A stretch of 64,000 nucleotides of DNA from an uncultured Alphaproteobacteria bacterium (GTDB taxonomy: Bacteria; Pseudomonadota; Alphaproteobacteria; HIMB59): contig CABZCN010000005.1 of assembly GCA_902524245.1 (NCBI GenBank), positions 1,101 to 65,100 on the forward strand, given 5' to 3'. The position numbers and the translations under genes are program-made. Shown one piece after another: positions 7,208 through 42,231 of this stretch. Under the pieces are notes generated by a model. It saw only the letters and a program-made list of their open reading frames with translations, was not told the origin of the DNA and did not search any database. The first letter of the stretch is position 1. Each line of letters begins with the position of its first letter.

Positions 7208-10200
7208 TATCCGTTCTCCCTGTTAACAGTTGGATCTGTTTCGATTAACTCTACATTCAATCCAAGAGATTTTAATTCTTTGACTAAGACGTGGAATGAC
7301 TCAGGTATTCCACTTTCAAAGTTATAGTCACCTCTTATTAAGGCTTCATAAACTTTTGTTCTTCCAGCTACGTCATCAGATTTAATAGTTAATATTTCTT
7401 GAAGAGTATTTGATGCACCATATGCTTCTAATGCCCATACTTCCATCTCTCCAAATCTTTGACCACCAAACTGAGCTTTACCACCTAAAGGTTGTTGAGT
7501 TACAAGACTATAAGGTCCAATGGATCTAGCATGAATTTTATCGTCAATTAAGTGATGAAGTTTTAAGATATATTTATACCCAACAGTAACTTTTCTCTCA
7601 AACCTTTCCCCTGACCTTCCATCATATAAATGTACTTGGCCACTATTATCAAAACCAGCTTTATCTAAAAGATTTGTAATTTCTTGGGTATTTGTTCCAT
7701 CAAAAACAGGTGTTGCAAACGTAACACCTTTTTCTAAGTTACCAGCCAATTCAATCAATTGATCGTCATTCATATTAGTAATTTCAGTATTAGAGTCTTT
7801 GTTATGCTCATAAAAACTCGATAGAGACTCTTTTAATTGAATTATATTTCCTTCTTTTCTTGCCATATCTAAACTTTGAGAAATTTGTTTACCTATACCG
7901 TAAGCAGCCCACCCTAAGTGAGTTTCTAATATTTGACCAATATTCATTCTACTTGGAACACCTAATGGATTTAACAATACATCAACAGGAGTTCCGTCTT
8001 CCAAGAAAGGCATGTCTTCAATTGGTACAATCTTTGAAATAACACCTTTATTACCGTGTCTGCCAGCCATTTTATCTCCTGCTTGAAGTTTTCTTTTCAC
8101 AGCAACAAAAACTTTAACAACTTTTAAAACACCAGGTAACAGGTCATCACCACTTTGTATTTTTTCAATTTTATTTTGAAACTTTTTATCTAATAAAATG
8201 ACAGCATCACTAAAGATTTTCTTTTGTGAAGTAAAGGTTTCCATCGATGAAGCATCATCAACTTGAATTTGTTCCAAAATCTCAATAGGTGTTGATATCA
8301 ACGAACTCTCTTCAATCTTATTTCCTTTTGAGAAAACGTCTATGTTTGAACTTGCATTTTTATTTTTAAAAATACTAATAAGATTTTGTTTGTAGTTATT
8401 TTCTAAAATATTTTTCTCGTCATCTCTGTCTTTTGCTAATCTATCTATTTCAACTCTTTCAATAGCAATAGTTCTTTCATCCTTTTCGACACCTCTTCGA
8501 ACTAATACCTGAACATCAACTACGACACCGGAGTAACCAGTGGGTAGTCTTAAAGATGTATCTTTTACATCAGCTGCTTTTTCAGAGAAGATTGCTCTTA
8601 ATAACTTTTCTTCAGGGGTAATTGGTGAGTCTCCTTTAGGAGATACCTTTCCAACTAAAATATCACCTGGTTTAACTTCAGAACCTATATAAACAATTCC
8701 TGCTTCATCGAGGTTTGTTATACTTTCGTCTCCTACATTAGGCATGTCTCTTGTAATTTCCTCTGGGCCTAACTTAGTATCTCTACACAGAACTTCAAAC
8801 TCTTCAATATGAATTGAAGTGTATCTATCTTCATGAACGACTCTTTCGGACATTATAATAGAGTCTTCAAAATTGTATCCATTCCAAGGCATAAAACCTA
8901 CAAGAAGGTTTCTTCCTAAAGCTAATTCTCCTAAATCTGTTGAAGGTCCATCAGCAATGATATCGCCCCTTTGAACATAATCTCCAATTTTAACGATTGG
9001 TTTTTGATTGATAGCAGTGCTTTGATTAGATCTTTGAAACTTTTTCAAATTGTAAATGTCGACACCACTTTTATCCTTACTAATATTTTTAGAGTCAGAT
9101 CTTATAACTATTCTTGATGAGTCTACTTGGTGAACATATCCGCTATTTTTCGCAATAACAACAGCGCCACTGTCTCTTGCCACTTTCGATTCAAATCCAG
9201 TGCCGACAAGAGGGGCTTCACTTTTAACAAGAGGAACGGCCTGTCTCATCATGTTTGATCCCATTAATGCTCTATTGGCATCATCATTTTCCAAGAATGG
9301 AATTAAAGAGGCGGCCACAGAAACTAATTGTTGAGGATTGACATCCATAAAGTCTATTTCAGATGGATCACAGAAAATAAAGTCACCTCTTCTTCTACAG
9401 CTTACTTGTTCTTCAGCAAATTTTCCATTTTCATTAATAGGGCTATTTGCTTGAGCTATAGTATAGTTCTCTTCTTCGTCAGCGTTTAAATATAAAACTT
9501 CATCCGTTACAGAGCCTTTAACTATTTTTCTATATGGTGTTTCGATGAAACCATATTGATTAATTCTTGCAAAAGATGAAAGACTGTTGATTAGACCAAT
9601 ATTTGAACCCTCAGGAGTTTCAATTGGGCATATTCTACCGTAGTGAGTAGTATGAACATCTCGAACCTCAAATCCCGCTCTTTCTCTTGTCAAACCACCA
9701 GGGCCTAATGCAGAAATTCTTCTTTTATGAGTTATCTCACTTAGTGGGTTAGTTTGATCCATAAACTGACTTAATTGGCTTGTACCGGTAAATTCTTTCA
9801 AAACAGTTTGAATGGGTTTTGAATTTACAAGATCTTGGGGCATTATTGACTCAATATCAACTGTTCCCATTTTTTCTCTAATTGCTCGTTCCATCCTGAC
9901 TAAACCAATTCTGTATTGGTTTTCAATTAGTTCTCCTACTGAACGAACACGTCTGTTTCCAAGGTGATCAATATCATCTTTACCAGCACTTTCTGTTTTC
10001 ATATCAAAAAGTTTTTTTGCTACTGCAAGGATATCGGATTTACTTAAAATTCTTATTTTATTATCTTTATCTAAAGATAAGTATGTATTTAATTTAACTC
10101 TACCTACTTCGGATAAATCATATCTATCTTCGCTAAAGAACATATTTTGAAATAAGTAGTTACTTGCCTCTAAAGTTGGCGGCTCACCTGGTCTTAAAAT

Positions 10201-11403
10201 TTTAAAAATATCAAATAGAGCTTCTTCTCGTGAATTATTTTTATCAGCTACAAGAGAATTAATAACACCTAAATTACCAGTGGCTTGATTAGCATTAATA
10301 ACAGAAAATTGATTGATTGATAATTCTTCTAATCTTTTAAAGAACTCTTCACTTAATAACGTACCAGCTTCGGCATAAACTAATCCGTTATCATAATTAA
10401 CGATGTCATTTGATAAATAAAAACCATAGAGATCCTCTTCTTTAAAGAAAAATTTATTGATTTTTTTATCTTTAATTTCTTTGAGTAATTTAAGAGATAA
10501 TTTTACGTCTTTGTAAGCTACTACCTCATTAGTATTAGGATCTACTAAATTAAAGGGTAAGTTTTTATACTTAAATTTATTTAAATCTAAATTGACTATC
10601 CAACCTTCTTTACTTTTCTTAAAATTAAAAGTTTCATAGAAGTAAGTTAATATTTCCTCGGATGTCATTCCTGATACTTTATAAATATCTGGCTCAACCT
10701 TATTTTGAATACACTCCTGTAAATATTTTTCTGAGGCCTTTGACGGCAAGGCCTGTAGAATAGTGGTGGATATCATTTTCTTTTTTCGATCAATTCTAAA
10801 GAATAAGTTGTCTTTATGATCAAATTCGAAATCTAACCAAGAACCTCTGTATGGAATTATTCTTGCGTTATATAAGACCTTACCACTTGCATGAGTTTTA
10901 CCCTCATCATGATCAAAAAATACACCAGGTGATCTATGTAACTGACTGACTACAACTCTTTCAGTTCCATTAACTACAAATGTACCGTTATTTGTCATTA
11001 AAGGTAAATCACCTAAATAAACGACTTGTTCTTTAATATCCCTTAATGATTTTTCTTCTGTTTCTTCATTGATATCCCAAATTATCAATCGAAAAGTGAC
11101 CATAAGAGAGGCTGAGAAGGTTAATCCTTTCCTTCTACACTCATCAACATCATATTTTGGATTATCAAGATAATAATCAATATAGTGAAGTTCAGATTTA
11201 CCTGCATAGTCTTTTATGGGAAAGACAGAATTAAAGACTTCTTGCAGGCCTGTATTTGAACGGTTCTCTACTGATTTTCCTAATTGAAGGAACTTATCGT
11301 AGGAAATTTTTTGAATATCAACTAAATTTGGAACATCGATCGTTTTACCGATCTTTCCAAATGAATAGCGAATTCGTTTTTTTTCTGTAAAGCTAAGTGG
11401 CAT
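7207..11403 (-). CDS. rpoB: RNA polymerase beta subunit
   Basis: [42 protein letters not shown]; 1-nt TAATG overlap with rpoC. Confidence 0.99.
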
Positions 11404-11428
11404 AATATGTAGAACCTATAATAACTAA

Positions 11429-11803
11429 TTATTTAAGTTCTACTTTTGCGCCTGCGGCTTCTAGCTGTGTCTTCATAGCTTCCGCCTCTTCTTTCTTAGC
11501 TCCTTCTTTTAAAGTTTTAGGAGCACCTTCAACCATATCTTTAGCTTCTTTTAAACCAAGTCCCGTAATCGCTCTTACTTCTTTAATAACATTAATTTTT
11601 TGATCTCCGGCTGCTGTAAGCACAACATCAAAAGCATCTTTTTCCTCAGCTGCTTCAGCTGCAGGAGCTGCTCCACCTGCTGCTACTGCCACCGGTGCTG
11701 CTGCTGTAACACCCCATTTTTCCTCTAAAAGTTTCGAAAGTTCTGCTGCTTCCATTACTGTTAGTGTTGATAGTTCATCAACAATTTTATTTAAATCTGC
11801 CAT
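11429..11803 (-). CDS. rplL: 50S ribosomal protein L7/L12
   Basis: Ala-rich hinge, [20 protein letters not shown]; GGGAG SD upstream. Confidence 0.98.
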
Positions 11804-11821
11804 TTTTCTGTCTCTCCCTAA

Positions 11822-12328
11822 TTAGTCTTTTTTGTTTTGTAGTATTGAAATAATATCCTGGTCTGGTCTTTGTAATAATCTTACAAGCTTCGAAGCAGGA
11901 GCATTAATCAATCCAACTATTTTTCCTCTTATTTCGTCAAGAGAAGGTAAAGTTGCAACCTTAGCTATATCCTCTTTTGAATATAGCTGATTATCAAAAA
12001 AAGCTGCCTCTGCAGATAGCTTTTTTAAATTTTTTTCAAATTTTTTACAAACTTTTGCAGTTCCAACTGGATTATTTGTAAAAATTAATAATTTTTGATT
12101 AGATAAAAAGTCAGTTAGAACTTTTTTTTCGTCATTTTTATTAACAAAAATTTTCACGATATTATTCTTTGAAACTTTAGTTACACCATCATTATTTCTA
12201 ATTTCAGTTCTAAATTCGATCATCTCCTTAACCGACATCTCTGAGAAAGATGCAACAAATATAGCGGAGTAATCCTTGGACATTTGATCAAGATTTTCAA
12301 TATATTGTTGTTTTTCAGCTTTATTCAT
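11822..12328 (-). CDS. rplJ: 50S ribosomal protein L10
   Basis: Lies between rplA and rplL; VSKNNIVK and ATLPSLDEIRGKIVGLINAPASKLVRLL. Confidence 0.93.
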   Translation of the reverse strand: MNKAEKQQYIENLDQMSKDYSAIFVASFSEMSVKEMIEFRTEIRNNDGVTKVSKNNIVKIFVNKNDEKKVLTDFLSNQKLLIFTNNPVGTAKVCKKFEKNLKKLSAEAAFFDNQLYSKEDIAKVATLPSLDEIRGKIVGLINAPASKLVRLLQRPDQDIISILQNKKD

Positions 12329-13002
12329 TAAACTTCAACCCTTAAACCAAAACCCATAGATGATGATAGATAAACAGAATTCACAAAGTTACCCTTCAAA
12401 CCTGATGGTTTTATTTTTTTTATTTCATCAATAAATGAAGTTACGTTTTCAGTTAGTTTACTTTCATCGAAACTAACTTTACCAAGGGCAGCATGAATAG
12501 TTCCCGCTTTGTCATTTTTGTATGCTACTAGTCCTTTATTAATATTTTCAATTGTGCTTTTGATATCGTTTGTAACAGTACCTGTCTTAGGATTAGGCAT
12601 TAAACCTTTTGGGCCTAAAATTTTAGCAATTTTACTTACGACTGACATCATATCTGGAGTAGCTACAATTACGTCTACATCAATCTTTTTTTCAAGAGAG
12701 GAAATTAAATCATCTCCTCCAACATATTTAGCTCCAGCTGCTTTAGCCTCTTCTGCAGCTTTTCCTTGAGCAAAAACTGCTATTTGAACTTTTTTTCCTA
12801 AACCATGAGGTGGTATAAAACTACCTCTAACATTTTGATCAGACTGCTTAGAGTCAATACCTGTATTGATCGATACTTCTAAAGACTCATCAAATTTAAC
12901 GAATTTTTTTTCTTTAATAATTTTAACTGCATCAGATATTTTATATAACTTTTTAAAGTCTATACCTTCGATTTGATTTTTTTTGTTTTTAGTTAAATTC
13001 AT
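12328..13002 (-). CDS. rplA: 50S ribosomal protein L1
   Basis: KFDESLEV, DQNVRG, PHGLGK, LGPKGLMPNPKTGTVT. Confidence 0.98.
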   Translation of the reverse strand: MNLTKNKKNQIEGIDFKKLYKISDAVKIIKEKKFVKFDESLEVSINTGIDSKQSDQNVRGSFIPPHGLGKKVQIAVFAQGKAAEEAKAAGAKYVGGDDLISSLEKKIDVDVIVATPDMMSVVSKIAKILGPKGLMPNPKTGTVTNDIKSTIENINKGLVAYKNDKAGTIHAALGKVSFDESKLTENVTSFIDEIKKIKPSGLKGNFVNSVYLSSSMGFGLRVEV

Positions 13003-13427
13003 TATACGACTTCCATTCCCATTGATCTTGCTGATCCAAGAATTATTTTTGATGCTTGATCAACATCATAGGCGTTGAGATCCTCTAATTTCTCTTTTGC
13101 TATCTCTTCCACCTGCTTCATTGTAACCTTACCTAATTTTGATCGACCAGGTGTTTGACAGCCTTTTTTAATTTTTGCAGCTTTCTTAAGATAAAAAGTA
13201 ACAGGTGGTTTCTTTGTAACAAAATCAAAAGATCTATCTTTGTATGCGGTAATTATTGTTGGGATAGGCGCGCCCTTTTCCAAATCTTTTGTCTTATCAT
13301 TAAACTGTTTACAAAAATCTTGAATGTTTAAACCTTTTTGACCTAAAGCAGGACCGACGGGGGGTGCTGGGTTAGCTGAACCAGCTGGAATTTGTAATTT
13401 TATATATCCTAATATTTCTTTAGCCAT
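13002..13427 (-). CDS. rplK: 50S ribosomal protein L11
   Basis: [28 protein letters not shown]. Confidence 0.98.
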
Positions 13428-13431
13428 TATA

Positions 13432-13977
13432 TTAGCCCTTTACCACTTGTGAATAGTCTAGTTCTAAAGGTGTCGGTCTCCCAAAAATTGAAACGGACAC
13501 TTTAAGCTTTTGTCTTGAACTGTCAACCTCTTCTATAATACCGCTAAATGAAGCAAATGGACCATCAGATACCTTGATCTGCTCACCAACTTCATACTCA
13601 AACTTTGGTTTAGGATTGTCGACACCCTCAGTAATGTCTTGTAATAATTTGGAAACTTCTCGTTCAGATATTGCAATCGGCTTATCTTTTGTACCAAGAA
13701 AATTTGAAACTTTTGGTATATCTCTCACTAAATGCCAGGTGTCATCGTTCATGATCATCTTGATTAAAACATACCCAGGGAAAAATTTTTTTTCTGAATT
13801 AACCCTTACACCCCTTCTCACTTCGACAACTGCTTGAGTTGGAACAGATACTTCAGATATGGAGTCTTCTAAACTGACTTTTTTTGCCTCATCTAAAATT
13901 GAGTCTGCAACTTTTTTCTCAAAGCCAGAGTGACAGTGTACGACGTACCACTTTAATGTATCAGTATTTTCAACCAT
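13432..13977 (-). CDS. nusG: Transcription termination/antitermination factor NusG
   Basis: [22 protein letters not shown] motif [19 protein letters not shown]. Confidence 0.98.
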
Positions 13978-13981
13978 TAAA

Positions 13982-14167
13982 TTATCCTAGAACTATTCTC
14001 ACGATAAAAGAAAAAAATTGGTCTAAGAGCATTAAAATAATTGCAGCAATACTAATTACAACCAAAACGATACCTGCTGAAGTAAAAGTTTCTCTCTTGG
14101 AGGGCCAGGTAACTTTAGATACCTCCTGTCGAACTTCTCTTAAATATTTAGCAGGATTAAATTTCAT
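13982..14167 (-). CDS. secE: Preprotein translocase subunit SecE
   Basis: EVRQEVSKVTWPS plus one TM helix. Start moved to ATG 14167 because the track's longer start lies inside tRNA-Trp. Confidence 0.95.
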   Translation of the reverse strand: MKFNPAKYLREVRQEVSKVTWPSKRETFTSAGIVLVVISIAAIILMLLDQFFSFIVRIVLG

Positions 14168-14184
14168 ATTTTTTTTATATTTTT

Positions 14185-14260
14185 TGGCAGGAGTGGCAGG
14201 CATCGAACCCGCAACCTCCGGTTTTGGAGACCGGCGCTCTACCAGTTGAGCTACACTCCT
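14185..14260 (-). tRNA. trnW: tRNA-Trp (CCA)
   Basis: AGGAGTGTAGCTCAACTGGTAGAGCGCCGGTCT-CCA-AAACCGGAGGTTGCGGGTTCGATGCCTGCCACTCCTGCCA; 76 nt cloverleaf with encoded CCA end; conserved tuf-trnW-secE context. Confidence 0.97.
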
Positions 14261-14289
14261 TCATATTAGTATTACTGCAGAGAATATTT

Positions 14290-15480
14290 TTATTCGATAA
14301 TCTCTGAAACAACTCCTGAGCCAACAGTTCTACCGCCTTCACGAATAGCAAAACGTAAGTTGTTATTCATTGCGATAGGAGCAAGTAACTCAACTTCAAG
14401 TGTTATATTATCTCCAGGCATAACCATTTCAGTACCTTCAGGCAATTTAATTGAACCAGTAACATCAGTGGTTCTAAAATAAAATTGAGGTCTGTAATTT
14501 GCAAAGAAAGGAGTGTGTCTTCCACCCTCCTCTTTGCTTAAAGCGTAAATCTCTGCTTTAAATTTTTTGTGAGGTTTAATACTACCAGGAGCTGCCAAAA
14601 CTTGGCCTCTTTCAACCTCTTCCTTTTTAGTTCCACGAAGAAGAGCACCAATATTATCTCCAGCTTCACCAGAGTCTAATAGTTTTCTGAACATCTCAAC
14701 ACCGGTACAAACTGTTTTGGTTGTATCTTTTAAACCAATAATTTCAATTTCTTCACCTGGTTTAATAACACCTTGTTCGACTCTTCCAGTAACAACAGTA
14801 CCTCTTCCAGAAATCGAAAATACGTCTTCAACTGGCATCAAGAAAGGTTTATCTAATTCTCTTGTAGGAGCAGGGATATACTCATCAATTTTTGACATTA
14901 ATTCAATGATTGAATTTTTACCAATATTTTCGTCTCTGTCTTCTACTGCAGCTAGTGCTGATCCTTTAACGATTGGAATATCATCGCCAGGGAAATCATA
15001 TTTTGATAATAGCTCTCTTATTTCAACTTCTACAAGCTCTAATAATTCTTGATCATCTACTTGATCAACTTTATTAAGGTAAACAACTAGTGCCGGTACA
15101 CCAACTTGTCTAGCTAAAAGTATATGTTCACGTGTTTGAGGCATTGGGCCGTCCGCTGCATTAACAACTAAGATACCTCCATCCATCTGAGCAGCACCTG
15201 TAATCATGTTTTTTACGTAGTCTGCGTGACCTGGACAGTCGACGTGAGCATAGTGTCTTTTGTCAGTTGAATACTCGACGTGCGCTGTTGAAATTGTTAT
15301 ACCTCTCTCTTTTTCTTCAGGTGCTTTATCAATTTCATCATAGGCTGTAAACTCTGCACCACCTTTTTCTGCCAAAACTTTTGTTATTGCTGCAGTAAGT
15401 GTAGTTTTACCATGGTCGACGTGACCGATAGTTCCGATGTTGACGTGTTCTTTCGATCTGTCAAATTTTTCTTTAGTCAT
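14290..15480 (-). CDS. tuf: Elongation factor Tu
   Basis: [27 protein letters not shown], 396 aa. Confidence 0.99.
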
Positions 15481-15884: not shown

Positions 15885-16607
15885 ATGCTTATTTCAGGGG
15901 TTAATTCTTGCACGAGCTGTATTTTACACAATCCTGATAAAATTATTGAAATTTTCATTAATATTGAAAAACAATCAGTTTTTAGAAAATTAATTGAGCA
16001 AAATAAACTGAATAATAAGACAAAGCTATTTAAGAAAAACGATTTCAATAGGCTAGGTATTAAAAATGATAGGTTTATCAGTGATATAGTTATACGAAGA
16101 GAAAAGTATAAGCCATTTAGCTTAGAGGAGATCATCAAAAATAGTGAAAAATCACTTATAATAATAGCTGATCAAATTACTGACCAAAATAATCTTGGAA
16201 ATATTATTAGAACAGCTCTACTAATGGGGGCTGACGGATTATTATTGTCAGAGTATTCTTCTGCGGATATTAATGAGATAACTTCATTAACATCATCCGG
16301 TGCCGTTGAAGTGTTGAAATATCATATCTCAAAAAATATTAGTAGGTCAGTTGAGGTTTTAAAAAAAAGTGGATATTGGACTTATTCACTTGATATGAGT
16401 GGCGAGGAAATCAACAGAGAATTTAAGTTTGATAAAAGATCTGTAATTATTGTTGGAAATGAGGGAAAAGGTATTAGAAAAAATGTTTTAACAAATAGTG
16501 ACTTTAAAATAAGTATCCCTCAAGAAAATTTAGATGGTATTGATAGTTATAATGCAGCAAATTCTCTAGCAATTGCTGCTTATCATTTCAAAATTAGTAA
16601 TTTTTAA
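15885..16607 (+). CDS. rlmB: 23S rRNA (G2251) 2'-O-methyltransferase, TrmH/SpoU family
   Basis: DQITDQNNLGNIIRT, IIVGNEGKGIR, DSYNAANS SPOUT motifs; divergent from tRNA-Tyr as is common in alphaproteobacteria. Confidence 0.85.
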   Translation: MLISGVNSCTSCILHNPDKIIEIFINIEKQSVFRKLIEQNKLNNKTKLFKKNDFNRLGIKNDRFISDIVIRREKYKPFSLEEIIKNSEKSLIIIADQITDQNNLGNIIRTALLMGADGLLLSEYSSADINEITSLTSSGAVEVLKYHISKNISRSVEVLKKSGYWTYSLDMSGEEINREFKFDKRSVIIVGNEGKGIRKNVLTNSDFKISIPQENLDGIDSYNAANSLAIAAYHFKISNF

Positions 16608-16796: not shown

Positions 16797-17498
16797 ATGA
16801 TTAACTTTATATTTAAATTAATCATTTTAATTTTTTTTTTAACTATTAGCTCTGTAAATAGTAATGAAGATATCTCTCAGGTTAACAAACTGTATCAAAA
16901 TCAAATTTTAGATCATGAGGCATATATAGATACGCTAAATAGTTTTAATGTAAATACAGAATCTAAAGATTTTAAAAACTTATTTGATTTATTTCTAAAC
17001 AATTCTATTTCGTTTGAAACTTTTGACCAAGGAATAATTAATATCTATAAAAAGAGTAAAACCACTGATAATAAATATTTTATTAAAAAATTTAGTCTTG
17101 ACGATTGTAAGGGTAATTCGCTGATATGTAGTGAATTTAAAAAAGTAAGAAACAGTGAAAGTTTCTTGGAGGAAGAAATTAAAATACCAATTAGTGAGCT
17201 AAGTTGTAAAACTCTAAAAAATTATCTAATAGATGACGTAAGCAATTCAAATTATGAAAATGATTTCAGTACAAGATTTGTTGGGGACTATATAAAGTTT
17301 GATGGCAGTAATGGATTTATTTACGAGGCAAAGTTTCAAATCTATTTAGAACAGCATGGCAGGCATGTATTATTATCATTATTTGTAAATGGCAACTTAG
17401 GAGATGAGTCAGAGAACTGTAAAAATTTTAAATTTAATAAAGCTATATTTATGTTTGGAGGTATGGTTTTAGCAGAAATGAAAATAAAACAAATTTAA
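16797..17498 (+). CDS. Hypothetical exported protein
   Basis: 233 aa ORF with a hydrophobic N-terminal signal-like stretch; no family recognised. Confidence 0.6.
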   Translation: MINFIFKLIILIFFLTISSVNSNEDISQVNKLYQNQILDHEAYIDTLNSFNVNTESKDFKNLFDLFLNNSISFETFDQGIINIYKKSKTTDNKYFIKKFSLDDCKGNSLICSEFKKVRNSESFLEEEIKIPISELSCKTLKNYLIDDVSNSNYENDFSTRFVGDYIKFDGSNGFIYEAKFQIYLEQHGRHVLLSLFVNGNLGDESENCKNFKFNKAIFMFGGMVLAEMKIKQI

Positions 17499-17579: not shown

Positions 17580-18287
17580 TTATTTAAAATTTTTTAAATC
17601 TCTTAAGGTATCAAATTCATACCATTTTCCAGAATAAATTGATGTTTCAACGATTATTTTTTTACTCAATAAAAAATTTATGTATGTGGTCATATCTATT
17701 TTATTATCCATTTCTTCATAATATTTGATCAATATTTTTATAAATTTTTTTGGTACATAAACTATTCCCATATATTGATATTTAGTATGATTAATATTTG
17801 TGATCTTTTGACCTATCTGAACTAGTCTGTTATTTTTCGTAATTAAACTTTCTGCATCATCTAATATATTCTGTTTTCTTTTATTCCATACTTTAGACCA
17901 GTTCTTTAAAATAGGTAAGGTCAAATTTTTAAAATTTTTTTTTAAAATTTTTTTTATAAGTTTTTTATTAAATAAGATATCGGAGTAGACGACGATTGTA
18001 TCTTCATGATTCATTTCTTTTAAACTTGTAATCATTGAATGAGTTATACCAGTATTGTTATAATCAATATTATTAATAAAATTAATTTTTTTGTTTTCTA
18101 AGCTACTAATTATATTTTCTTTTTTATATCCAACTGAAACATTAATTTTATTGACTCCATAATATTCAAAATCCTCTATCAATTTTAAAATTAATGTCTT
18201 GTTATTTATCTCTATTAAACATTTATTTTTTTTAATATCTCTAAATATTCGAGAACTCTTTCCTGCAGCTAACACTAATGCTTGCAT
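17580..18287 (-). CDS. CTP:phosphoglutamine cytidylyltransferase-like nucleotidyltransferase (Cj1416-like; LicC/NTP-transferase fold)
   Basis: ALVLAAGKSSR, KCLIEI, YSDILF, WSKVWNKRKQNILDDAESL, QYMG, WYEFDTLRDL. The W..W..R...L.DAE.L segment matches what I recall of Cj1416. ATG 18287 overlaps the upstream TGA by 1 nt. Confidence 0.8.
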   Translation of the reverse strand: MQALVLAAGKSSRIFRDIKKNKCLIEINNKTLILKLIEDFEYYGVNKINVSVGYKKENIISSLENKKINFINNIDYNNTGITHSMITSLKEMNHEDTIVVYSDILFNKKLIKKILKKNFKNLTLPILKNWSKVWNKRKQNILDDAESLITKNNRLVQIGQKITNINHTKYQYMGIVYVPKKFIKILIKYYEEMDNKIDMTTYINFLLSKKIIVETSIYSGKWYEFDTLRDLKNFK

Positions 18288-18889
18288 CAATTAAATAAAA
18301 TATTATTGAAGATAATATCAATGTTTTTTTGACTTTTATTTTTTCTTTCAGGATGAAACATCATTAAATATATTTTGCAATTTTTAATTTTAGTAAATTC
18401 CAATGATCCATCTTTTGAAACCATTAGTTGCTCCAGATTATTATTTTTGAAATTTTTAAAACCATAATTATGAAAGCTATTTACTCTTAAAATACTGTTA
18501 TTTTCATCATAAATTTCATGATTGATATTGACATGATTTAATATTTTTCTTGTTTTAATACCATTTAATTCGCCTAAAAGTTGAGCGCCTCTACATACCC
18601 CGAGAATGGGTTTGCCAGTTTTTTTAAATTTTTTAATTATATTTTTTTCAAAAATTTCTCTTTCTTTATCAATATTTAATTTTGAATGCTTATATAGAGA
18701 ATTACCTCCTGATAATATTAGTGCATCATATTTGTTAGATAATTGATTTATATTAGTAACAACCTGAAGGTTAAAATTCATTTTTTTTGCATATTCTATC
18801 CAATTGTACTCAATTGAGTAATTTAGTTGTTTGTGTTTATCAAGGTAATATTTTGGTGTTATTAAAATGTTTTTGCTAAATGATCTCAT
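18287..18889 (-). CDS. Class I glutamine amidotransferase / peptidase C26 (Cj1417-like gamma-glutamyl-CDP-amidate hydrolase)
   Basis: LILSGGN, PILGVCRGAQ (Cys nucleophile), VNSFHNY, MFHPER (His-x-Glu); lies between Cj1418- and Cj1416-like genes. ATG 18889 preferred over TTG 18916. Confidence 0.8.
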   Translation of the reverse strand: MRSFSKNILITPKYYLDKHKQLNYSIEYNWIEYAKKMNFNLQVVTNINQLSNKYDALILSGGNSLYKHSKLNIDKEREIFEKNIIKKFKKTGKPILGVCRGAQLLGELNGIKTRKILNHVNINHEIYDENNSILRVNSFHNYGFKNFKNNNLEQLMVSKDGSLEFTKIKNCKIYLMMFHPERKNKSQKNIDIIFNNILFN

Positions 18890-21173
18890 AAATAGACTCT
18901 TCTGGATTAATAACAATTCTTTTTTTTTGTGAAATAAAATTATAGTTTTCTTCTCCTATTCCTATAATTGAAGTGATGTTAAGTTCTGAACATCTGATAG
19001 CCATATGAGAATTTGGTCCACCATTTTTTGTAATTAATCCCATTATATTATTTGTAAATATAAAATCATATCCAGGATCAGCGTTTTCAATCATCACTAT
19101 TTTATTAGAAAAATTTTGTTTCAAATCTGGATTATAAACAATTAAACCCCCCACTATGTTATTAAATCCATAGAAATTACCAGCTTGATTTTTTCTATAA
19201 AAATAATCAATAGCGGTAGAGTCTTTAATAAAATCAGGATAAATAATCTTTGAAGCTTCTTTTTGTTCCAAAATACTTTCATCAATTGTTTTATTTATTG
19301 TGTTTCTTAACCTTACAGGGCTTAATTTAGAAAATGCATTTAGAATTAAGTTATAATCAACATGCTTAATGAGATCTTGTCTAATATTCATTTCTTGAAA
19401 TAAAAGCTTTAATTCTTTAAATATTAAGTCAATTCCTTTTGTAAAATGAAACTTAGACTCTTCTCTCATTTCTGTAGATAGCTTACAAAATTTTAAAAAT
19501 TTTTTTGAATTAAATTTTAATTTATGTCTTTTAAAATATAAGTCTATTTTGTAGTAATCATTTTTCTTAAAACTAAATGATTTTTTTTTATAATTATAAA
19601 TTTCTTTGTTATTAAAATACTTTTGAAAATTTTCTTCATAAGAATTACAAGATATATCGTAAGTTGAAGGTCTGAGATGTCCGTATTTTTTAAGAAAATT
19701 ATTTTTTGTAATTTTTTTATTTAAATAATTATTATAATCATTATTTATCTTAGATGTAATAGTACTGAAGGATCCATAAAAGTTGTCAATTACTTTTTTA
19801 TCGACAATTTTTTCATCGATTAACTTGTTACAAATATATTTTGAAATAAATGCGGATCTTGCCAAACCCGCAAAAGGTAAAGTACCATATTCTTTTAAGT
19901 AATAATTATAATAAAATATTTTATTAATAGGATGTTGATTACTATCTTTAATATCATTTATTTTTTTCAGAAAAAAATCAATTTTATCGTTTTCCTTTTT
20001 TATATAATTATCATTTATAATTTTATTAACGATTGAATTTACTTTTAATTTTAGATCAATAAATTCATTTTTGCTAATTATTCCTTTAAGCTCTTTATCA
20101 AAATCACCAACAAATGACGGAAATAATTTAAATTCAACTTGGTCATGTATCTCTGGTTGAGCATCAAGTTTACTCAGATAAAAATTTATTAATTTTTTTG
20201 AAATATTTTTGTTTAAGTTTTTTGGAATAAATGAATTTATATCAACTTTGATATCAATATATGGAATTCCATAAATATCGTACATAAGCACGTTTGGCCT
20301 AACATCAAAATACCCATATTCGTGTCTTTGCTTTGACCATATATCATTTGTAATTAATTCCTTGTATAATGATAATGCTAATTTAGATGGACTTGATCCA
20401 AGTATTTCAACAGGATTCCAGTCTGCCATATTACTTAAATAATTTTTATTACCTATCAATGTGTCTTTTATTTTCAAAATATTATCTATTTTCTTTTTAA
20501 TATTAGTAATAGTTGAAGGTTGAGCGACTTGCGAAATTATTTTACTTATGGGAAGATTTCTAATTTGAAGAATGTATACTTCATTTTTTTTCACACAAAA
20601 TTCTAAATCTAAATTTTCATTTTTTAATTTCTTTTCTAAAAATTTACAAATTTCTATTAATTTAATAAAATTTTTAGGAATATTTTTACTATTTTTTCTT
20701 AAATAAAATGTTTTTATAGTAGGATTTTTAATACCTGATGTAATTAGATTAGTTTTTTTTGAGCTATCATAATTAATTACATAATAATATTTTCTCTTAT
20801 TTAAATCTTTAGTAAATATTACACCACTTAAGCTGACATTATTAATAAATTCTTGTACAATAAAAATATCCTCCAGATTTTTAAACTCAGAAGTAACTAA
20901 GTCTACAAAATAATTTATTTTGGAAAATTTATTTTTTTTAATGACATAAGATGAATATTTTCCTGCATTAACTAACAAGGCATCTTCATCAAATGATGCA
21001 GACCTAATAATAATATTTTGATTAAATTTATTATTTATGATTTGAGTAATTTTTGATTTTTTCAGTTGCCAGTCTTTTTTTGAAAAAAATATAAATTTTG
21101 GAACCGTATATCTATTTTTTGATAAACTTAATAGTAATTCTAAATTGTATGCTTTGTTATCTAGGATCTTCAT
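18876..21173 (-). CDS. L-glutamine kinase (Cj1418-like; PEP-utiliser / ATP-grasp family)
   Basis: About 765 aa. N-terminal ATP-grasp (IIRSASFDED, AGKYSS, FIVQEFI, SGVIFT, DLEF, LQIR), central MADWNPVEILG and YGHLRPSTYDI, C-terminal phospho-His domain NADPGYDFIF...GGPNSHMAIRCSE. Confidence 0.85.
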   Translation of the reverse strand: MKILDNKAYNLELLLSLSKNRYTVPKFIFFSKKDWQLKKSKITQIINNKFNQNIIIRSASFDEDALLVNAGKYSSYVIKKNKFSKINYFVDLVTSEFKNLEDIFIVQEFINNVSLSGVIFTKDLNKRKYYYVINYDSSKKTNLITSGIKNPTIKTFYLRKNSKNIPKNFIKLIEICKFLEKKLKNENLDLEFCVKKNEVYILQIRNLPISKIISQVAQPSTITNIKKKIDNILKIKDTLIGNKNYLSNMADWNPVEILGSSPSKLALSLYKELITNDIWSKQRHEYGYFDVRPNVLMYDIYGIPYIDIKVDINSFIPKNLNKNISKKLINFYLSKLDAQPEIHDQVEFKLFPSFVGDFDKELKGIISKNEFIDLKLKVNSIVNKIINDNYIKKENDKIDFFLKKINDIKDSNQHPINKIFYYNYYLKEYGTLPFAGLARSAFISKYICNKLIDEKIVDKKVIDNFYGSFSTITSKINNDYNNYLNKKITKNNFLKKYGHLRPSTYDISCNSYEENFQKYFNNKEIYNYKKKSFSFKKNDYYKIDLYFKRHKLKFNSKKFLKFCKLSTEMREESKFHFTKGIDLIFKELKLLFQEMNIRQDLIKHVDYNLILNAFSKLSPVRLRNTINKTIDESILEQKEASKIIYPDFIKDSTAIDYFYRKNQAGNFYGFNNIVGGLIVYNPDLKQNFSNKIVMIENADPGYDFIFTNNIMGLITKNGGPNSHMAIRCSELNITSIIGIGEENYNFISQKKRIVINPEESIYEII

Positions 21174-21487
21174 ATGCAAAATTGTATATATTAATTAACA
21201 TTGAGTATATTTTATAAGCTTTAATTTTGAAGATATTAAAATAACACTATAATATAATGTTTATTGAAAATTATTTTTCAATAAATAACTTTACTTTAAA
21301 GCAGAAGAGAATAATCGCTTTTTATTATAAATTACATTGATAATAAGGTTTTTTTAAGAATATAAGTTATTCAATTTAAAATAGCTTAATGAAATATGAA
21401 TAAAGTATTTATTTAATATATTTAATATCCAGAAGTTGAAATAGTAATAAAATTATTTATATTTATAACTAAATATCATTTATCTAA

Positions 21488-22981
21488 ATGTTATTATTTA
21501 ATCAGCTAATCATTATTTTTATTTTCTTGAATCCGTCTTGGTTATTTAATTTTTATATTGATAAATATGAAATTTATTTAATATATATCTTAATCTTATT
21601 TGTTTTTCTTTTTTTTGTATATTTAATATTAGTTAAAATAAAAAGAGAGAATATACCAATTTTAGATAAATTCTTTTTTTCTTTAATAATTTTTATTTTT
21701 TTAGATTTAAACTTTGGATTTTTAAAAATATCAAAAATTTTTAATATAACATCTACAGTTGTTGAGTTTGCCTACCCTTTAATTTTACTTTTAATAATTT
21801 TTCTAATTAATTTTAAATTATTAAAAAAAAACTATAGTAAATTAAAAAAAATACTCGTTGCAATAGTTGTTTCTGTATCAATTATAAACTTATTTAATTT
21901 TATTAGCTTAGAAAATAATAATCTTCAAAACGATAATAAAGATGATACTAATTATGAAATATATGGAAAAAATATTATCATTATCCTTGACTCTTTTTCC
22001 AATTATTTAGGTGATAGTAAAGATCTAAATCAAAAATTTTCAGAAGAAAAAAATAAATTAAAAGATTTTAATTTTGTTATTTTTGAGAATGTTTTTACTA
22101 AATTTTATTATACTAACAATAGCCTATCCTCTCTTTTAAATTTTACTACTGATTTAAATGATTTAAATAAATTACAAAAAGTAGTTTATAGGAATGGTAG
22201 ACCAAGTAATATAATGATAAAAAATAAATTTTTACGCGATCATGTTAGTAGCAATAACTTTGTTATGAACCATTTTTTATTTGATATGTGTCAAGCTGAA
22301 CTTAAAAAAATTGTTAACTGTGAAATTACTGGTAATCAGTTAAATCCAGCGCATGTGCAGTTTATGGGTTACTCAGACTCATTTATTTTAAGATCAAGTT
22401 ATTTTATGCTATTAAAGTTATTTAATAAAAACATTTTCCATCCATTTTTTAGTGAGAAGAAAAATATTAATAAGCATTTAAATATAATAAAAAATGCTTT
22501 TTTAAATAAATATGATAATTATATTATTCTTCTTCAAAGTTCACATCCTCCTAATATATTAGATAGTGAATGCAATATATCTATAAATTATTCATCTTCG
22601 TACCTAGATGAATTTAGTTGTCATATAAATATATTAGAGGATCTTTTTTTATTCATGAAAAAAAATGAAATTTTTGATATGTATAATATTCACATCTTAG
22701 GAGATCATGGTCAAAGAAGATATGACTCAATTAATGGTTTAGATAATAATGAGTTATTATCGATTTTTCAGACATTTTATGCTTACAAGGGAGATAACAT
22801 TTCAAAAAAAATCGATCAAAAATCAATAATTTCAAATCAAGATTTATTTAAAAATTTAGTTTTGGAGGATGATTATGATTTTAACACCAAAGCTTTTATT
22901 CTTAGATCAGATGATATACCAGGATTTTTAGATGAAATTACAGAAATAGAATTAAAAAATGTTTTAAACATTGATAATTAA
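21488..22981 (+). CDS. Membrane-anchored alkaline-phosphatase-superfamily enzyme (LtaS/EptA/sulfatase-like)
   Basis: About five N-terminal TM helices, then IIILDS (metal Asp), YTNNSLSSL (candidate Thr nucleophile), SHPP and ILGDHG. Confidence 0.7.
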   Translation: MLLFNQLIIIFIFLNPSWLFNFYIDKYEIYLIYILILFVFLFFVYLILVKIKRENIPILDKFFFSLIIFIFLDLNFGFLKISKIFNITSTVVEFAYPLILLLIIFLINFKLLKKNYSKLKKILVAIVVSVSIINLFNFISLENNNLQNDNKDDTNYEIYGKNIIIILDSFSNYLGDSKDLNQKFSEEKNKLKDFNFVIFENVFTKFYYTNNSLSSLLNFTTDLNDLNKLQKVVYRNGRPSNIMIKNKFLRDHVSSNNFVMNHFLFDMCQAELKKIVNCEITGNQLNPAHVQFMGYSDSFILRSSYFMLLKLFNKNIFHPFFSEKKNINKHLNIIKNAFLNKYDNYIILLQSSHPPNILDSECNISINYSSSYLDEFSCHINILEDLFLFMKKNEIFDMYNIHILGDHGQRRYDSINGLDNNELLSIFQTFYAYKGDNISKKIDQKSIISNQDLFKNLVLEDDYDFNTKAFILRSDDIPGFLDEITEIELKNVLNIDN

Positions 22982-23040: not shown

Positions 23041-23232
23041 ATGACTCGTATTTTATTAATTATTTTATCAATTTTCCCAATAAATCTTTATGCATATTTC
23101 GATCCAGGTTCAGCAAGCGTAGTTATACAGGCTATAATAGCCTTTATAGTCGCTATAGGTGCTAGTATTTCAATATATTTTAGAAAATTTAAGGAGTTCA
23201 TTAGTAAAATTTTTAAAAGAAAAAAAAAATAA
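23041..23232 (+). CDS. Small membrane protein with AYFDPGS motif
   Basis: 63 aa: signal-like N-terminus, AYFDPGSAS, one TM helix, basic tail; its stop directly abuts the next gene's TTG. Confidence 0.7.
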   Translation: MTRILLIILSIFPINLYAYFDPGSASVVIQAIIAFIVAIGASISIYFRKFKEFISKIFKRKKK

Positions 23233-24333
23233 TTGAATAAAATATTCAATTTAATAAAAATTTTTTCTATAAATCAAAAAGACCATATTTTTATTTATTC
23301 CGAAGATAGTAATTATTGGGTACATTTAGAACCTTTAATTACATCAATACTAAATTATGAATCCTTAAGTATAATTTATATTTCTTCAAATAGAGAAGAC
23401 CTTGGATTAAAATTTAAACATATAAATTTCAAATCATTTTATTTAGGATTTGGGGCTATTTTAACTTGGTTTTTTAAGAATATTGACTGTAAAATAATGA
23501 TTACAAGTTCACCCGATCTTGATAATTTTCACTTTAAAAAATCTAAAAATAATGTTCATTACATATATACTCAACATTCTTTATGCAGCTTACATTCAAT
23601 TTATAATCATAATGCATTTAAAGCTTATGATACAATTTTTTGTTCTACAGAAAATCATATAATTGAGGGTGAAAAATTATTTCTTGAATTCAAAAAAAAA
23701 CCAATTTTATTTAAACACGGTTATGATAGGCTTTTAACATTACCTGCAAAAATAAATAATTTAAATTTAAAAAATAAGGTTATTCTTATATCTCCTAGTT
23801 GGGGATCATCGTCTTTACTTATGGATAAAGATAAATTAACTGGTTTAATTGAAGCGTTATTAAAAAATGAGCATAAAGTTATTTTGAGACCCCACCATAT
23901 GACATTTCGAAATGAGGAAAATTACATTATTAGTATTGAGAAAAAATTTTCAGAATTTAAAAATTTTTCACTTGAAAAAGGAAATTTTGACTCAAAATCG
24001 TTGGCTAAAGCTGATGTGCTAGTAACTGACTACTCTGGGGTAGGTTTTGAGTATTACTATAAATATAGAGGTTTAGTGATTTTCATTGATACCGGAAAAT
24101 TAAAAATAAATAACCCTAATTTTGAAAAATTTTGTTTACCTGCGTTTGAAATAATTAATAGATCAAAGATTGGTTATGTAATTAAGTATGATAATTTAAG
24201 TGAAATTTTATCTACTATAATAAATAGACCTCCTAAATTGATGGAAACTAATCCTATTTTTAACACAAAAAATAGTAACGAAATTGGAGCCAAATACGTA
24301 AAGGAACTCTTTGATAAGTTATCTATTAGTTGA
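23233..24333 (+). CDS. CDP-glycerol:glycerophosphotransferase family protein (TagF/TagB-like)
   Basis: YTQHS, GYDR, LISPSWG, LRPHH and ADVLVTDYSGVGFEY match the TagF-family motifs (YAPTW, xHP, lItDYSSvxfd); TTG start. Confidence 0.7.
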   Translation: MNKIFNLIKIFSINQKDHIFIYSEDSNYWVHLEPLITSILNYESLSIIYISSNREDLGLKFKHINFKSFYLGFGAILTWFFKNIDCKIMITSSPDLDNFHFKKSKNNVHYIYTQHSLCSLHSIYNHNAFKAYDTIFCSTENHIIEGEKLFLEFKKKPILFKHGYDRLLTLPAKINNLNLKNKVILISPSWGSSSLLMDKDKLTGLIEALLKNEHKVILRPHHMTFRNEENYIISIEKKFSEFKNFSLEKGNFDSKSLAKADVLVTDYSGVGFEYYYKYRGLVIFIDTGKLKINNPNFEKFCLPAFEIINRSKIGYVIKYDNLSEILSTIINRPPKLMETNPIFNTKNSNEIGAKYVKELFDKLSIS

Positions 24334-24550: not shown

Positions 24551-25078
24551 ATGACTCAGGATATAGATCAATTTGGAAGAGACACTACAAATGATAACAC
24601 TAAAAATTTAGACGAAGAAAAGTCAAAACAAATATTAGACTCATTAGCTGAAATTAAAGATCAACTAGAAAATAAAGAATATAAACCAAATACTGAAGAC
24701 TCTAAACCAAAAATAAAAGTCGTTAATTCAAATAGCAACTCAGATTTTGATGAAATAAGAATAAAAATTGAATACTTAGAAAAAAAACTTAATTCTATTG
24801 ATATATATCTAAAAGATGAATCAAATAAAATAGGATTTGATAAGCCGATGTCTCAGCAGCTTGATGGGAATTTAAGTGTTTTTCATCAATTTGATAACCA
24901 ATCATCAATACAACAGAATAAATCAGTACTTGTTCTTGAAAATGAGAGTGATTTTCATAAATCAAATTTTAATTTATTTCGTTTTATAATGACAATAAAC
25001 ACTCTCTTTTTAGTGCTGATTGGACTAATTGTTTACATAAAAAATATTCCATTAAAAGATATTCTAAAAATATTTTAA
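24551..25078 (+). CDS. Hypothetical protein, charged/coiled-coil N-terminus and C-terminal TM anchor
   Basis: 175 aa ORF; C-terminal hydrophobic helix FIMTINTLFLVLIGLIVYI. Confidence 0.6.
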   Translation: MTQDIDQFGRDTTNDNTKNLDEEKSKQILDSLAEIKDQLENKEYKPNTEDSKPKIKVVNSNSNSDFDEIRIKIEYLEKKLNSIDIYLKDESNKIGFDKPMSQQLDGNLSVFHQFDNQSSIQQNKSVLVLENESDFHKSNFNLFRFIMTINTLFLVLIGLIVYIKNIPLKDILKIF

Positions 25079-36563: not shown

Positions 36564-37168
36564 CAAACTTACTGTTAAGTATTGGATGCGTTAATATAGA
36601 CTTCAAAAAACAATTTACTCTTACATCTGGCAAAAAAAGTCCTGTTTATGTTGATTGTAGAAAATTAATTTCATTTCCAAAAGAAAGAGAATTAATTATT
36701 AATGAAATGAGCAAACAGATTAAATCGAAGTATAAAGATAATTCGACTATTATTGCAGGAGGCGAAACAGCTGGTATTCCCTACTCTTCCTTTCTGTGTC
36801 AAAAGATGAAATATCCAATGGTATATTTAAGAAAGAGCCCTAAAGGGTTTGGAAAAGGTAAGCTAATAGAGGGAGAGTTTAAAAAGAATAATCAGTCAAT
36901 ATTAGTAGAGGACATGGCAACTGATGGAGGAAGTAAATTACATTTCATAAAGGCTTTAAGACAAAATAAACTAAAAGTTAAAGATATATATGTAGTTTTT
37001 TACTATGGCATTTACCCTAAAGCTAAAAAAAATATATCTAAAATGAATGTGAATTTAAATTATCTCACTTCATGGAGAGATATATTAACTATTTCTCCAA
37101 ATTATATTTCAGATAAAGATTACAAGAATTTAAAAAATTATTTAGAGTCAATTTCGAGTGGAAAATAA
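36524..37168 (+). CDS. pyrE: Orotate phosphoribosyltransferase
   Basis: [36 protein letters not shown]; ATG 36524 preferred. Confidence 0.92.
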
Positions 37169-37613
37169 AATTATTAGTGTTGTTTCAGGGGGATTTGACC
37201 CCATCCATCCTGGACATATTATGATGATGAAAGAATGTTTAGAGTTTTCTAATTTTTTAATCGTAGGTGTAAATTCTAATAAATGGTTAATTGATAAAAA
37301 AGGAAATTTTTTTATGGATATTCAACATAGAATGTATGTTGTTGATAGCTTAAAAGTAGTAAATGAATCTATGGAATTTGAAGATGATGAAATGGGAAGT
37401 GCAAATAATTTGTTAATTCAAATAAGAAATAAATATCCAAATGAAAAAATTATTTTTGCTAATGGAGGTGATAGATCAGACACTTCTAAAATTTTAGAAT
37501 ATGAAACAGCAAAGAAATATAATATTGAATTAAAATTTGGTGTAGGTGGAAATCACAAAGAGTCTTCAAGTTCTGATTTGCTAAAAAGATGGAGTGAATA
37601 CTCTAAAAACTAA
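37158..37613 (+). CDS. HxGH cytidylyl/adenylyltransferase (TagD/RfaE-domain-II-like)
   Basis: SGGFDPIHPGHI, IVGVNSNKWL..KKG, FANGGDR, SSS; GTG start. Confidence 0.8.
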   Translation: MENKIISVVSGGFDPIHPGHIMMMKECLEFSNFLIVGVNSNKWLIDKKGNFFMDIQHRMYVVDSLKVVNESMEFEDDEMGSANNLLIQIRNKYPNEKIIFANGGDRSDTSKILEYETAKKYNIELKFGVGGNHKESSSSDLLKRWSEYSKN

Positions 37614-42006: not shown

Positions 42007-42231
42007 TTACTGAAACTCAGTTGATGCAAGTGATTTATTCTTTTTAACAATTTTATCAATTTTAACTTTTGCAGATTTTAATTTTTCCTCACAGTATTCT
42101 TTTAACTCTATGCCCTCTTCAAATAACTTGATACTTTCTTCAAGAGGTGTTTTTTCATTTTCTAATAAGTCGGATATTTGCTCTAATCTTTTGAGAGCAC
42201 TTTCAAAATTTTTTTCATTTTTTTTATTCAT
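42007..42231 (-). CDS. xseB: Exodeoxyribonuclease VII small subunit
   Basis: FESALKRLEQI...LEESIKLFEEG...C...L. Confidence 0.93.
   Translation of the reverse strand: MNKKNEKNFESALKRLEQISDLLENEKTPLEESIKLFEEGIELKEYCEEKLKSAKVKIDKIVKKNKSLASTEFQ

Follow-up and report, generated by a model that had tools for sequence, protein, structure and literature searches.

A TagF-family protein encoded next to a glutamine-kinase cassette as a candidate phosphoramidate transferase in an uncultured alphaproteobacterium

The window analysed here is a stretch of 64,000 nucleotides from an uncultured alphaproteobacterium of the HIMB59 lineage (contig CABZCN010000005.1), and the gene of interest, at 23233-24333 on the plus strand, encodes a TagF-like protein. 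The gene lies in a low-GC island of about 8 kb, at about 16-24.5 kb, in which the GC content is 19-25% as against 30-37% in the flanks; an EF-Tu/ribosomal cluster borders the island on the left and a formate dehydrogenase gene on the right. Within the island are a three-gene donor cassette, the TagF-like gene, a gene for a small peptide, a gene for a membrane enzyme of the alkaline phosphatase superfamily, and one family-less gene. The cassette, on the minus strand, comprises genes for a Cj1418-like L-glutamine kinase (767 residues; 18876-21179), a Cj1417-like hydrolase with the class-I glutamine amidotransferase fold (209 residues; 18287-18916) and a Cj1416-like cytidylyltransferase (236 residues; 17580-18290). 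Diverging from the kinase gene, on the plus strand, is the gene for a 497-residue membrane protein (21488-22981), and downstream of it are a 63-residue open reading frame (ORF; 23042-23232, plus strand) and the TagF-like gene, which is thus on the strand opposite the cassette. The original prediction was that the TagF-like enzyme uses cytidine diphosphoramidate directly, giving an unmethylated phosphoramidate on a glycan. It described a cassette that ends after the cytidylyltransferase gene and a TagF-family gene in the divergent operon, and this description of the layout was accurate: the TagF-like gene is on the plus strand behind 21488-22981, and the next gene beyond the cytidylyltransferase (16797-17498, plus strand) is convergent and unrelated. 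The product of the latter gene, a protein of 233 residues with a signal-like N-terminal segment, matches no Pfam or NCBIfam family and is a possible member of the island.

The TagF-like ORF starts with TTG and encodes 366 residues, and its product is a genuine member of the TagF family. The protein scores 32.1 bits against PF04464 (Glyphos_transf), for which the cut-off is 22.1, in the Pfam search and likewise in the genome search. The motifs that had prompted the assignment to TagF/TagB, namely PSWG (residues 188-191), RPHH (219-222) and TDYSGVGFEY (265-274), fall in conserved columns, and H115, P188, R219, H221, S268 and E306 are invariant across 34 homologues. A profile of the subfamily also matches the TarL structure 8va1 in the PDB (E 1.8e-5); in the alignment, H221 of R-P-H falls on the His of M-H-P, and D-Y-S-G...E-Y falls on D-Y-S-S...E-Y. 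For H115, the alignment considered was that of the subfamily itself. The AlphaFold2 (AF2) model, a glycosyltransferase B (GT-B) fold, is of high quality (predicted local distance difference test, pLDDT, 94; predicted template modelling score, pTM, 0.92), and its top Foldseek matches are structures of Bcs3, the capsule multienzyme of Haemophilus influenzae type b (8a0m and 8a0c, E 8e-11), one of which was solved with cytidine monophosphate (CMP). After Bcs3 come generic GT-B enzymes, and TM-scores are just 0.55-0.63. Homology searching found few close relatives of the protein, and there is no second PF04464 gene in the genome.

In Campylobacter jejuni, Cj1418 is an L-glutamine kinase, Cj1416 a CTP:phosphoglutamine cytidylyltransferase and Cj1417 a gamma-glutamyl-CDP-amidate hydrolase (PMC11800397). 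The window kinase matches NF004508 (PRK05849) at 639.6 bits, where the cut-off is 501, and also has the PEP-utilizers mobile domain; it lies inside the TagF-linked clade of the kinase tree with support of 100. The hydrolase matches Pfam GATase and Peptidase_C26, and its best NCBIfam match is the gamma-glutamyl-CDP-amidate hydrolase family NF045546, at 109 bits and so under the cut-off of 250. The cytidylyltransferase matches the general NTP_transf_3 family only (Pfam, 48.4 bits); a gene of this kind is constantly third in the kinase-hydrolase-nucleotidyltransferase trio of related loci, and both the hydrolase and the cytidylyltransferase genes keep the conserved gene order. On sequence grounds, the window cassette is judged real, with a Cj1418-like kinase and with a probable Cj1417-like hydrolase and Cj1416-like cytidylyltransferase. 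By homology with Campylobacter, the kinase would phosphorylate L-glutamine on its amide nitrogen, the cytidylyltransferase would yield cytidine diphosphate (CDP)-L-glutamine, and the hydrolase would free glutamate, leaving cytidine 5'-diphosphoramidate. Since the trio is the only source of such a donor adjoining the TagF-like gene here, cytidine diphosphoramidate is the predicted donor. A very unlikely alternative has N-phospho-L-glutamine being transferred from CDP-L-glutamine, which the cassette also produces and which is likewise a plain CDP donor, with the hydrolase acting later or on another substrate. The hydrolase's score below the equivalog cut-off is in line with this idea, but the hydrolase is kept in essentially every cassette that has a TagF-like gene beside the trio (TagF-type cassettes, below), and its best family match is still to the CDP-amidate hydrolase.

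We favour, with somewhat better than even confidence, the reading that the TagF-like protein acts as a head-group transferase, releasing CMP and using cytidine diphosphoramidate without 3'-phosphorylation. In reactions of the TagF and TarL enzymes, the acceptor hydroxyl attacks the beta-phosphate of CDP-glycerol or CDP-ribitol and CMP leaves, and by analogy chemistry of this type is expected for the window protein. The acceptor hydroxyl would attack the beta-phosphorus, the enzyme would transfer -P(O)(O-)NH2, and CMP would leave. Because TagF-family enzymes bind plain CDP donors, 3'-phosphorylation of the Cj1415 type would be unneeded. The 63-residue peptide, encoded just upstream, would hold the enzyme at the inner membrane face. 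The acceptor could be a lipid-linked glycan or a lipopolysaccharide (LPS) precursor; alternatively it could be a lipid carrier, from which the LtaS/EptA-like enzyme would pass the group on to a molecule lying outside the membrane. Since no methyltransferase is encoded in the island, the product probably is a phosphoramidate that lacks a methyl group.

Gene neighbourhoods were compared at hundreds of loci. Co-occurrence of the TagF-like subfamily with the glutamine-kinase cassette was sampled from the kinase side, which is a less biased test than sampling from the TagF side. In three of three Pelagibacter-type cassettes, for which the sole selection criteria were kinase similarity and the length of the contig, a homologue of the window protein is adjacent (phmmer E 1e-37, 3e-34 and 3e-18); a Sulfatase-family membrane protein is present in two of the three and an APS-kinase in none. 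Metagenomes supplied a larger sample, at least 600 stretches matching the cassette scan, of which at least 572 were confirmed. Among 80 metagenomic loci obtained by scanning with a kinase alignment, a TagF-like gene alone was found in 20, an APS-kinase alone in 22, both in one and neither in 37 (Fisher p 0.004), many of the 37 being short contigs. When the count is restricted to the 24 loci whose trio is complete and flanked on each side by 2 kb or more, the corresponding figures are 7, 10, 1 and 6. The TagF-like gene directly follows the cytidylyltransferase gene in 15 of the 21 TagF-type metagenomic loci. Two of the loci counted as having neither gene proved to have a partner after all, namely a more canonical PF04464 gene in L201 and a sulfotransferase-like gene in L167. 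In a same-genus genome (L102), too, the trio has a TagF of more canonical type beside it; the profile of the subfamily (A1) detects neither this gene nor the one in L201. The TagF-trio pairing persists across deep divergence, i.e., 27-45% kinase identity, and involves more than one lineage of TagF. Its recurrence in different phyla, and with TagF lineages that are independent of one another, led us to reject the idea that the genes are neighbours in a hypervariable island by chance. In sum, the co-occurrence that the original prediction proposed to examine is strong when viewed from the cassette side (three of three Pelagibacter-type cassettes, 20 of 80 metagenomic loci, and the 16 genome loci described below). 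Neither this comparison nor the genome search described below, two of the three checks by which the prediction could have failed, counted against it.

The loci with an APS-kinase (kinase-type cassettes; L157, L162, L163, L170, L176, L178, L197 and others, all metagenomic) have a fixed layout of APS-kinase (~178 residues), Methyltransf_11 methyltransferase (~250 residues, 13 loci), glutamine kinase, hydrolase and nucleotidyltransferase, a set which is a Campylobacter-like complement. The division between the two cassette types fits the idea that a handle like that of 3'-phosphoadenosine 5'-phosphosulfate (PAPS) is needed only by the type of transferase that serves kinase-type cassettes, as we infer. 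Six kinase-type loci additionally encode a Sulfotransfer_3-like protein, a possible transferase for the 3'-phosphorylated donor. A different arrangement is seen in another genome (G139; locus L100, 5260-11612), where the kinase has 986 residues, NeuB-like and radical-SAM/SPASM genes lie between the kinase and hydrolase genes, and Capsule_synth (PF05159), methyltransferase, sulfotransferase and WbqC genes are neighbours; there is no TagF-like gene at that locus.

From the TagF side, one genome per species was scanned with a 10-sequence subset of the subfamily alignment, giving 77 loci in many phyla, and clustering of their neighbours gave three recurring contexts. In the first (16 loci), genes for the small peptide, glutamine kinase, hydrolase, cytidylyltransferase, the TagF-like protein and usually a YidC-like protein are contiguous and co-directional. 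This arrangement occurs in Alphaproteobacteria and Gammaproteobacteria, with a Pelagibacteraceae cell and a Vibrio isolate among the carriers, and in Flavobacteriales, Chlamydiales and Dadabacteria, so that the context spans at least four phyla (Pseudomonadota, Bacteroidota, Chlamydiota and Dadabacteria), and no APS-kinase gene lies within 10 kb of any of the 16 loci. The same block is present on metagenomic contigs (L004-L007), where the cytidylyltransferase and TagF-like genes overlap by a few bases. In the second context (~25 loci: L010, L013, L014, L016-L018, L020-L026, L028-L030, L032, L033, L035, L037, L039, L041, L055, L065 and L084), a lone S-adenosylmethionine (SAM) methyltransferase gene, TehB-like, precedes the TagF-like gene, the order being small peptide, methyltransferase, TagF-like protein, YidC-like protein. 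The 25 genomes of this context have no glutamine kinase; searching them for the PEP_mutase family was uninformative, as methylisocitrate-lyase-type proteins match in control genomes too. In the third context (~20 loci), phosphonate genes adjoin the TagF-like gene: a fusion of cytidylyltransferase and phosphoenolpyruvate (PEP) mutase (PntC-PepM), a phosphonopyruvate decarboxylase, an iron-type alcohol dehydrogenase (Fe-ADH) or a nucleotidyltransferase-aminotransferase fusion, and a 470-residue cupin of the MPnS/HEPD kind.

The three contexts interleave on the TagF-like tree, and TagF-like proteins that are 63-65% identical pair with different donor cassettes. Two further loci extend the range of partners. 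One, in a same-genus genome (L126 of G192, ~7089-15293), has a homologue with 29% identity to the window protein in a methylphosphonate-type cluster that also encodes a nucleotidyltransferase, a 506-residue membrane protein, an Fe-ADH, a phosphonopyruvate decarboxylase, a cytidylyltransferase-PEP mutase fusion and an MPnS/HEPD-like cupin; this homologue is a candidate enzyme for the transfer of methylphosphonate or hydroxyethylphosphonate. The other (L123 of G125, 6739-8304) encodes a 521-residue fusion of a weakly matching nucleotidyltransferase with an APH-type kinase (LicC/LicA-like) and would be another kind of donor cassette; its neighbours are genes for the small peptide, for a homologue of the TagF-like protein and for a protein resembling YidC. 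In other genomes, the TagF-like gene lies beside a gene for a small TagD-like cytidylyltransferase. What varies beside the TagF-like module is in every case an enzyme set that couples a small phosphorus-containing head group to a nucleotide. Gene content of this kind suggests that the TagF-like protein, small peptide and membrane partner are a portable module, and the pattern fits what would be expected of a transferase that recognises CMP-P(X), where X is small, and makes little demand on X. For the window protein itself, a phosphonate donor was ruled out because the genome has no PEP mutase, with zero PF13714 matches.

The genome searched is 94.6% complete. The original prediction had noted that the window lacks a Cj1415-type kinase and Cj1419/20-type SAM methyltransferases, and both absences hold more widely. 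No stand-alone APS-kinase-like gene of the Cj1415 type was found in the genome, where the sole APS_kinase domain is that of a 621-residue CysNC fusion on another contig (C2). The only methyltransferases in the window are RNA methylases, SpoU (15885-16607) and RsmH/MraW (51599-52501). A profile of the methyltransferase of kinase-type cassettes, built from metagenomic and not from Campylobacter proteins, gave a best genome score of 32.6 bits, to a generic match, and a profile of the sulfotransferase-like protein of those cassettes, a metagenomic proxy and not Cj1421/Cj1422 themselves, gave no genome match. These results bear on a scarcely credible alternative in which the cell retains the Campylobacter route: CysNC, through its APS-kinase domain, would 3'-phosphorylate the donor, and an unrecognised, non-TagF transferase would install the group. 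The required domain does exist in the genome, but CysNC is the housekeeping PAPS enzyme and is encoded on a contig other than that of the cassette, the sulfotransferase-like partner has no counterpart, and the dedicated kinase is missing nearly everywhere in TagF-type cassettes.

The nearest relatives of the window protein have other neighbours. Loci of the 75%-identical relative (L208/L209) and the 68%-identical relative (L210/L211) keep the small peptide, and L208 also has the counterpart, of 495 residues, of the window's membrane protein. The cassette position is taken there by a TagD/RfaE-II-like cytidylyltransferase gene, which the 75%-identical relative adjoins, or by a 145-residue family-less gene plus an ATP-sulfurylase-like gene. 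Such neighbours raise the possibility, which we consider unlikely, that the window enzyme transfers an ordinary CDP-alcohol head group (glycerol phosphate, ribitol phosphate or other), the donor coming from elsewhere in the genome and the island merely being shared with the cassette. Known family members do use CDP-glycerol or CDP-ribitol, and the genome has several nucleotidyltransferases in addition to the cassette enzyme and to a 151-residue CTP_transf_like protein encoded in the window (37158-37613, plus strand). The latter gene sits between pyrE and fabI, i.e., among housekeeping neighbours, and its product is far under the cut-offs for both TagD and RfaE domain II; at 33 bits versus a cut-off of 165, it is the best TagD candidate in the genome, so that no TagD or TarI equivalog was found there. 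The other nucleotidyltransferases are RmlA-, RfbF-, KdsB- or NeuA-like as judged by inspection of their sequences. Against a CDP-alcohol donor there is also the adjacency of TagF-like genes and the trio, which recurs across phyla and in independent TagF lineages.

The proteins encoded between the cassette and the TagF-like gene are likely to be its partners. The 63-residue ORF, seemingly unannotated, encodes a signal-like N-terminus, one transmembrane helix and a Lys-rich tail and includes the motif A-Y-F-D-P-G-S-A-S; an A10 run lies just ahead of its TAA stop, and the TTG start codon of the TagF-like gene follows that stop directly. No Pfam family matches the peptide. More than 50 loci of the TagF-like subfamily, in every context, encode a peptide with the consensus A-Y-I-D-P-G-S-G-S, a transmembrane helix and K-T-Y-W-Y-K, and in Treponema, Bacteroides and Sutterella the two are a single fusion protein, with the peptide as N-terminal part and the TagF-like protein behind it. 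The peptide is likely a membrane anchor or partner subunit. The 497-residue protein has an N-terminal helical domain followed by a predicted domain of the alkaline phosphatase superfamily (LtaS/EptA/sulfatase-like). It has no direct Pfam match and just 18 relatives among 1.8 billion representatives, remote ones of which match PF00884 (Sulfatase). Foldseek searches with its AF2 model, which is of moderate quality (pLDDT 71), returned sulfatases, LtaS, LtaP, EptA and MCR-1. Sulfatase-family genes accompany the same gene set at two other loci (L092 and L094), and there is no BLAST similarity between the 497-residue protein and the 506-residue protein of the same-genus phosphonate cluster. The 497-residue protein is likely a partner enzyme; it may carry the group over to an acceptor lying beyond the membrane, or may act otherwise.

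EptA takes its head group from phosphatidylethanolamine and forms a Thr-phospho intermediate. This invites a relay variant of our reading, with the same donor chemistry, in which the last transfer does not fall to the TagF-like enzyme: it would load phosphoramidate on a membrane lipid (diacylglycerol or polyprenol), and the LtaS/EptA-like enzyme would forward the group outside the inner membrane via a Thr-phospho intermediate. Pelagibacter-type loci repeatedly pair the TagF-like gene with a membrane enzyme of the alkaline phosphatase superfamily (the window, L092, L094, L133, L138 and L142), a candidate with a weak Metalloenzyme match is present in the same-genus methylphosphonate-type cluster as well, and LtaS, EptA and MCR-1 are all among the structural matches listed above. 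In most other phyla, however, the membrane partner is YidC-like and not of this superfamily; the model behind the structural matches reaches only the pLDDT given above, its top matches are sulfatases, and no such lipid is known. We regard the relay as a minority possibility, with perhaps one chance in several.

Returning to the preferred reading, direct transfer from cytidine diphosphoramidate by the TagF-like enzyme, several findings weigh against it. In the window the TagF-like gene is in a divergent operon and is not joined to the trio, and its PF04464 match is confined to profile positions 186-292 of 367, i.e., the C-terminal half. The subfamily is not specific to phosphoramidate, as it also occurs in phosphonate, methyltransferase-only and other contexts, and the closest relatives adjoin a TagD-like cytidylyltransferase or an ATP-sulfurylase-like gene, not the trio. 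Across 187 genomes of the window's order, the kinase is present in five, the TagF-like subfamily in eight and both in two, so that six of the eight lack the kinase. One metagenomic locus (L169, 121-1843), the sole one of its kind, has a TagF-like gene, an APS-kinase and a methyltransferase beside the trio. The TagF-linked loci form two well-supported clades of the kinase tree, such that about two TagF/kinase changes suffice; the near-exclusivity of TagF-like gene and APS-kinase, read on this tree, is a clade-level pattern and not one of 40 independent events. Lastly, the products of the other nucleotidyltransferases in the genome are not all assigned. Weighed together with the co-occurrence results, the direct use of cytidine diphosphoramidate has gained support from gene neighbourhoods, whereas the other two parts of the original prediction, that the product is unmethylated and that it is carried on a glycan, still stand as predictions.

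A broader reading is offered tentatively, as one that we would not yet expect to prove correct. The locus would be one version of a widespread modular envelope machine, with the TagF-like protein at its core, made up of a procoat-like peptide (mature Y-I-D-P-G-S-G-S), a TagF-like CMP-P(X) transferase, a membrane partner and interchangeable donor cassettes. The membrane partner would be LtaS/EptA-like in Pelagibacter-type genomes and a YidC-like paralogue otherwise, and the donors would carry P-NH2 where the trio supplies them, P-CH3 or P-C2 where phosphonate genes do, and other groups elsewhere. If this were true, abundant marine bacteria would bear unmethylated surface phosphoramidate, and the dissolved organic phosphorus of the sea would receive, in addition to its known phosphonates, an unrecognised and acid-labile pool of P-N compounds.

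Direct transfer by the TagF-like enzyme has consequences of its own. A transferase of a well-understood family acting on plain diphosphoramidate would explain the many cassettes without a 3'-kinase and would allow a simple assay by CMP release. Because the cassette is frequent in marine metagenomes and the transferase is common to methylphosphonate clusters, the finding is relevant to the question of where unusual marine phosphorus compounds come from. It also bears on surface variation in Pelagibacter-like bacteria, e.g., on phage receptors.

Two other features of the window are recorded here. Flanking the island is an ORF of 175 residues (24551-25078, plus strand) that matches no family and has a hydrophobic segment at its C-terminal end. 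Farther along (42224-43842, minus strand), histone-deacetylase-family and class-I amidotransferase genes end the dcw (mraW-ftsI-mur-ftsW) cluster.

Among known systems, the C. jejuni pathway for O-methyl phosphoramidate (MeOPN; Cj1415-Cj1422) is closest, its first three enzymes having homologues in the window. The cassette in the window differs in having neither a Cj1415-type 3'-kinase nor a methyltransferase, and where Campylobacter has Cj1421/Cj1422 there are a member of the TagF family, the small membrane peptide and a protein resembling LtaS/EptA. For the transfer role of Cj1421 and Cj1422, the evidence cited in PMC11800397 is from knockouts only; the literature searched yielded neither a fold or family for these two proteins nor an in vitro characterisation of the phosphoramidate transfer step. 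A full-text literature search linked no TagF-family enzyme to phosphoramidate or to CMP-phosphonates, and gave no description of the shorter pathway, which the original prediction had put forward as undescribed. The gene content suggests that the kinase-free TagF route is a variant of the known phosphoramidate pathway, shorter than the Campylobacter route. By chemical analysis, the LPS cores of Xanthomonas campestris and Shewanella MR-4 are known to carry unmethylated phosphoramide groups (PMC8042644, PMC3210612); these reviews name no biosynthetic genes for the groups, and the TagF-type cassette is a candidate route to groups of this type.

Pnt pathways and marine methylphosphonate clusters likewise activate a small P(X) head group on CMP and then pass it to surface glycans, and clusters of the Pnt type (PntC-PepM, Ppd, Fe-ADH and MPnS-like proteins) contain homologues of the window TagF-like protein, one of them in the same genus. 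The window genome differs in lacking PEP mutase, and its activated group would be P-N, not P-C. For PntC-dependent phosphonate tailoring, the transferases named are LicD-like and not TagF-like (PMC6697681). EptA/MCR-1 and LtaS have, as does the 497-residue protein, an N-terminal membrane domain followed by an alkaline phosphatase superfamily domain, with sequence similarity at the limit of detection. With TagF, TarL, TarF and the TagF-like domain of Bcs3 (8va1, 8a0c), the window protein has in common PF04464, a GT-B-like fold and the S-D-x-S-G...E-Y nucleotide motif, and the His of its R-P-H motif aligns with TarL. It departs from TagF and TarL in being short and single-domain, in having its membrane peptide as a separate protein (fused elsewhere), and in coming from a diderm host without genes for CDP-glycerol or CDP-ribitol; further, the neighbours of its subfamily make CDP-amidate or CMP-phosphonates, not CDP-polyols.

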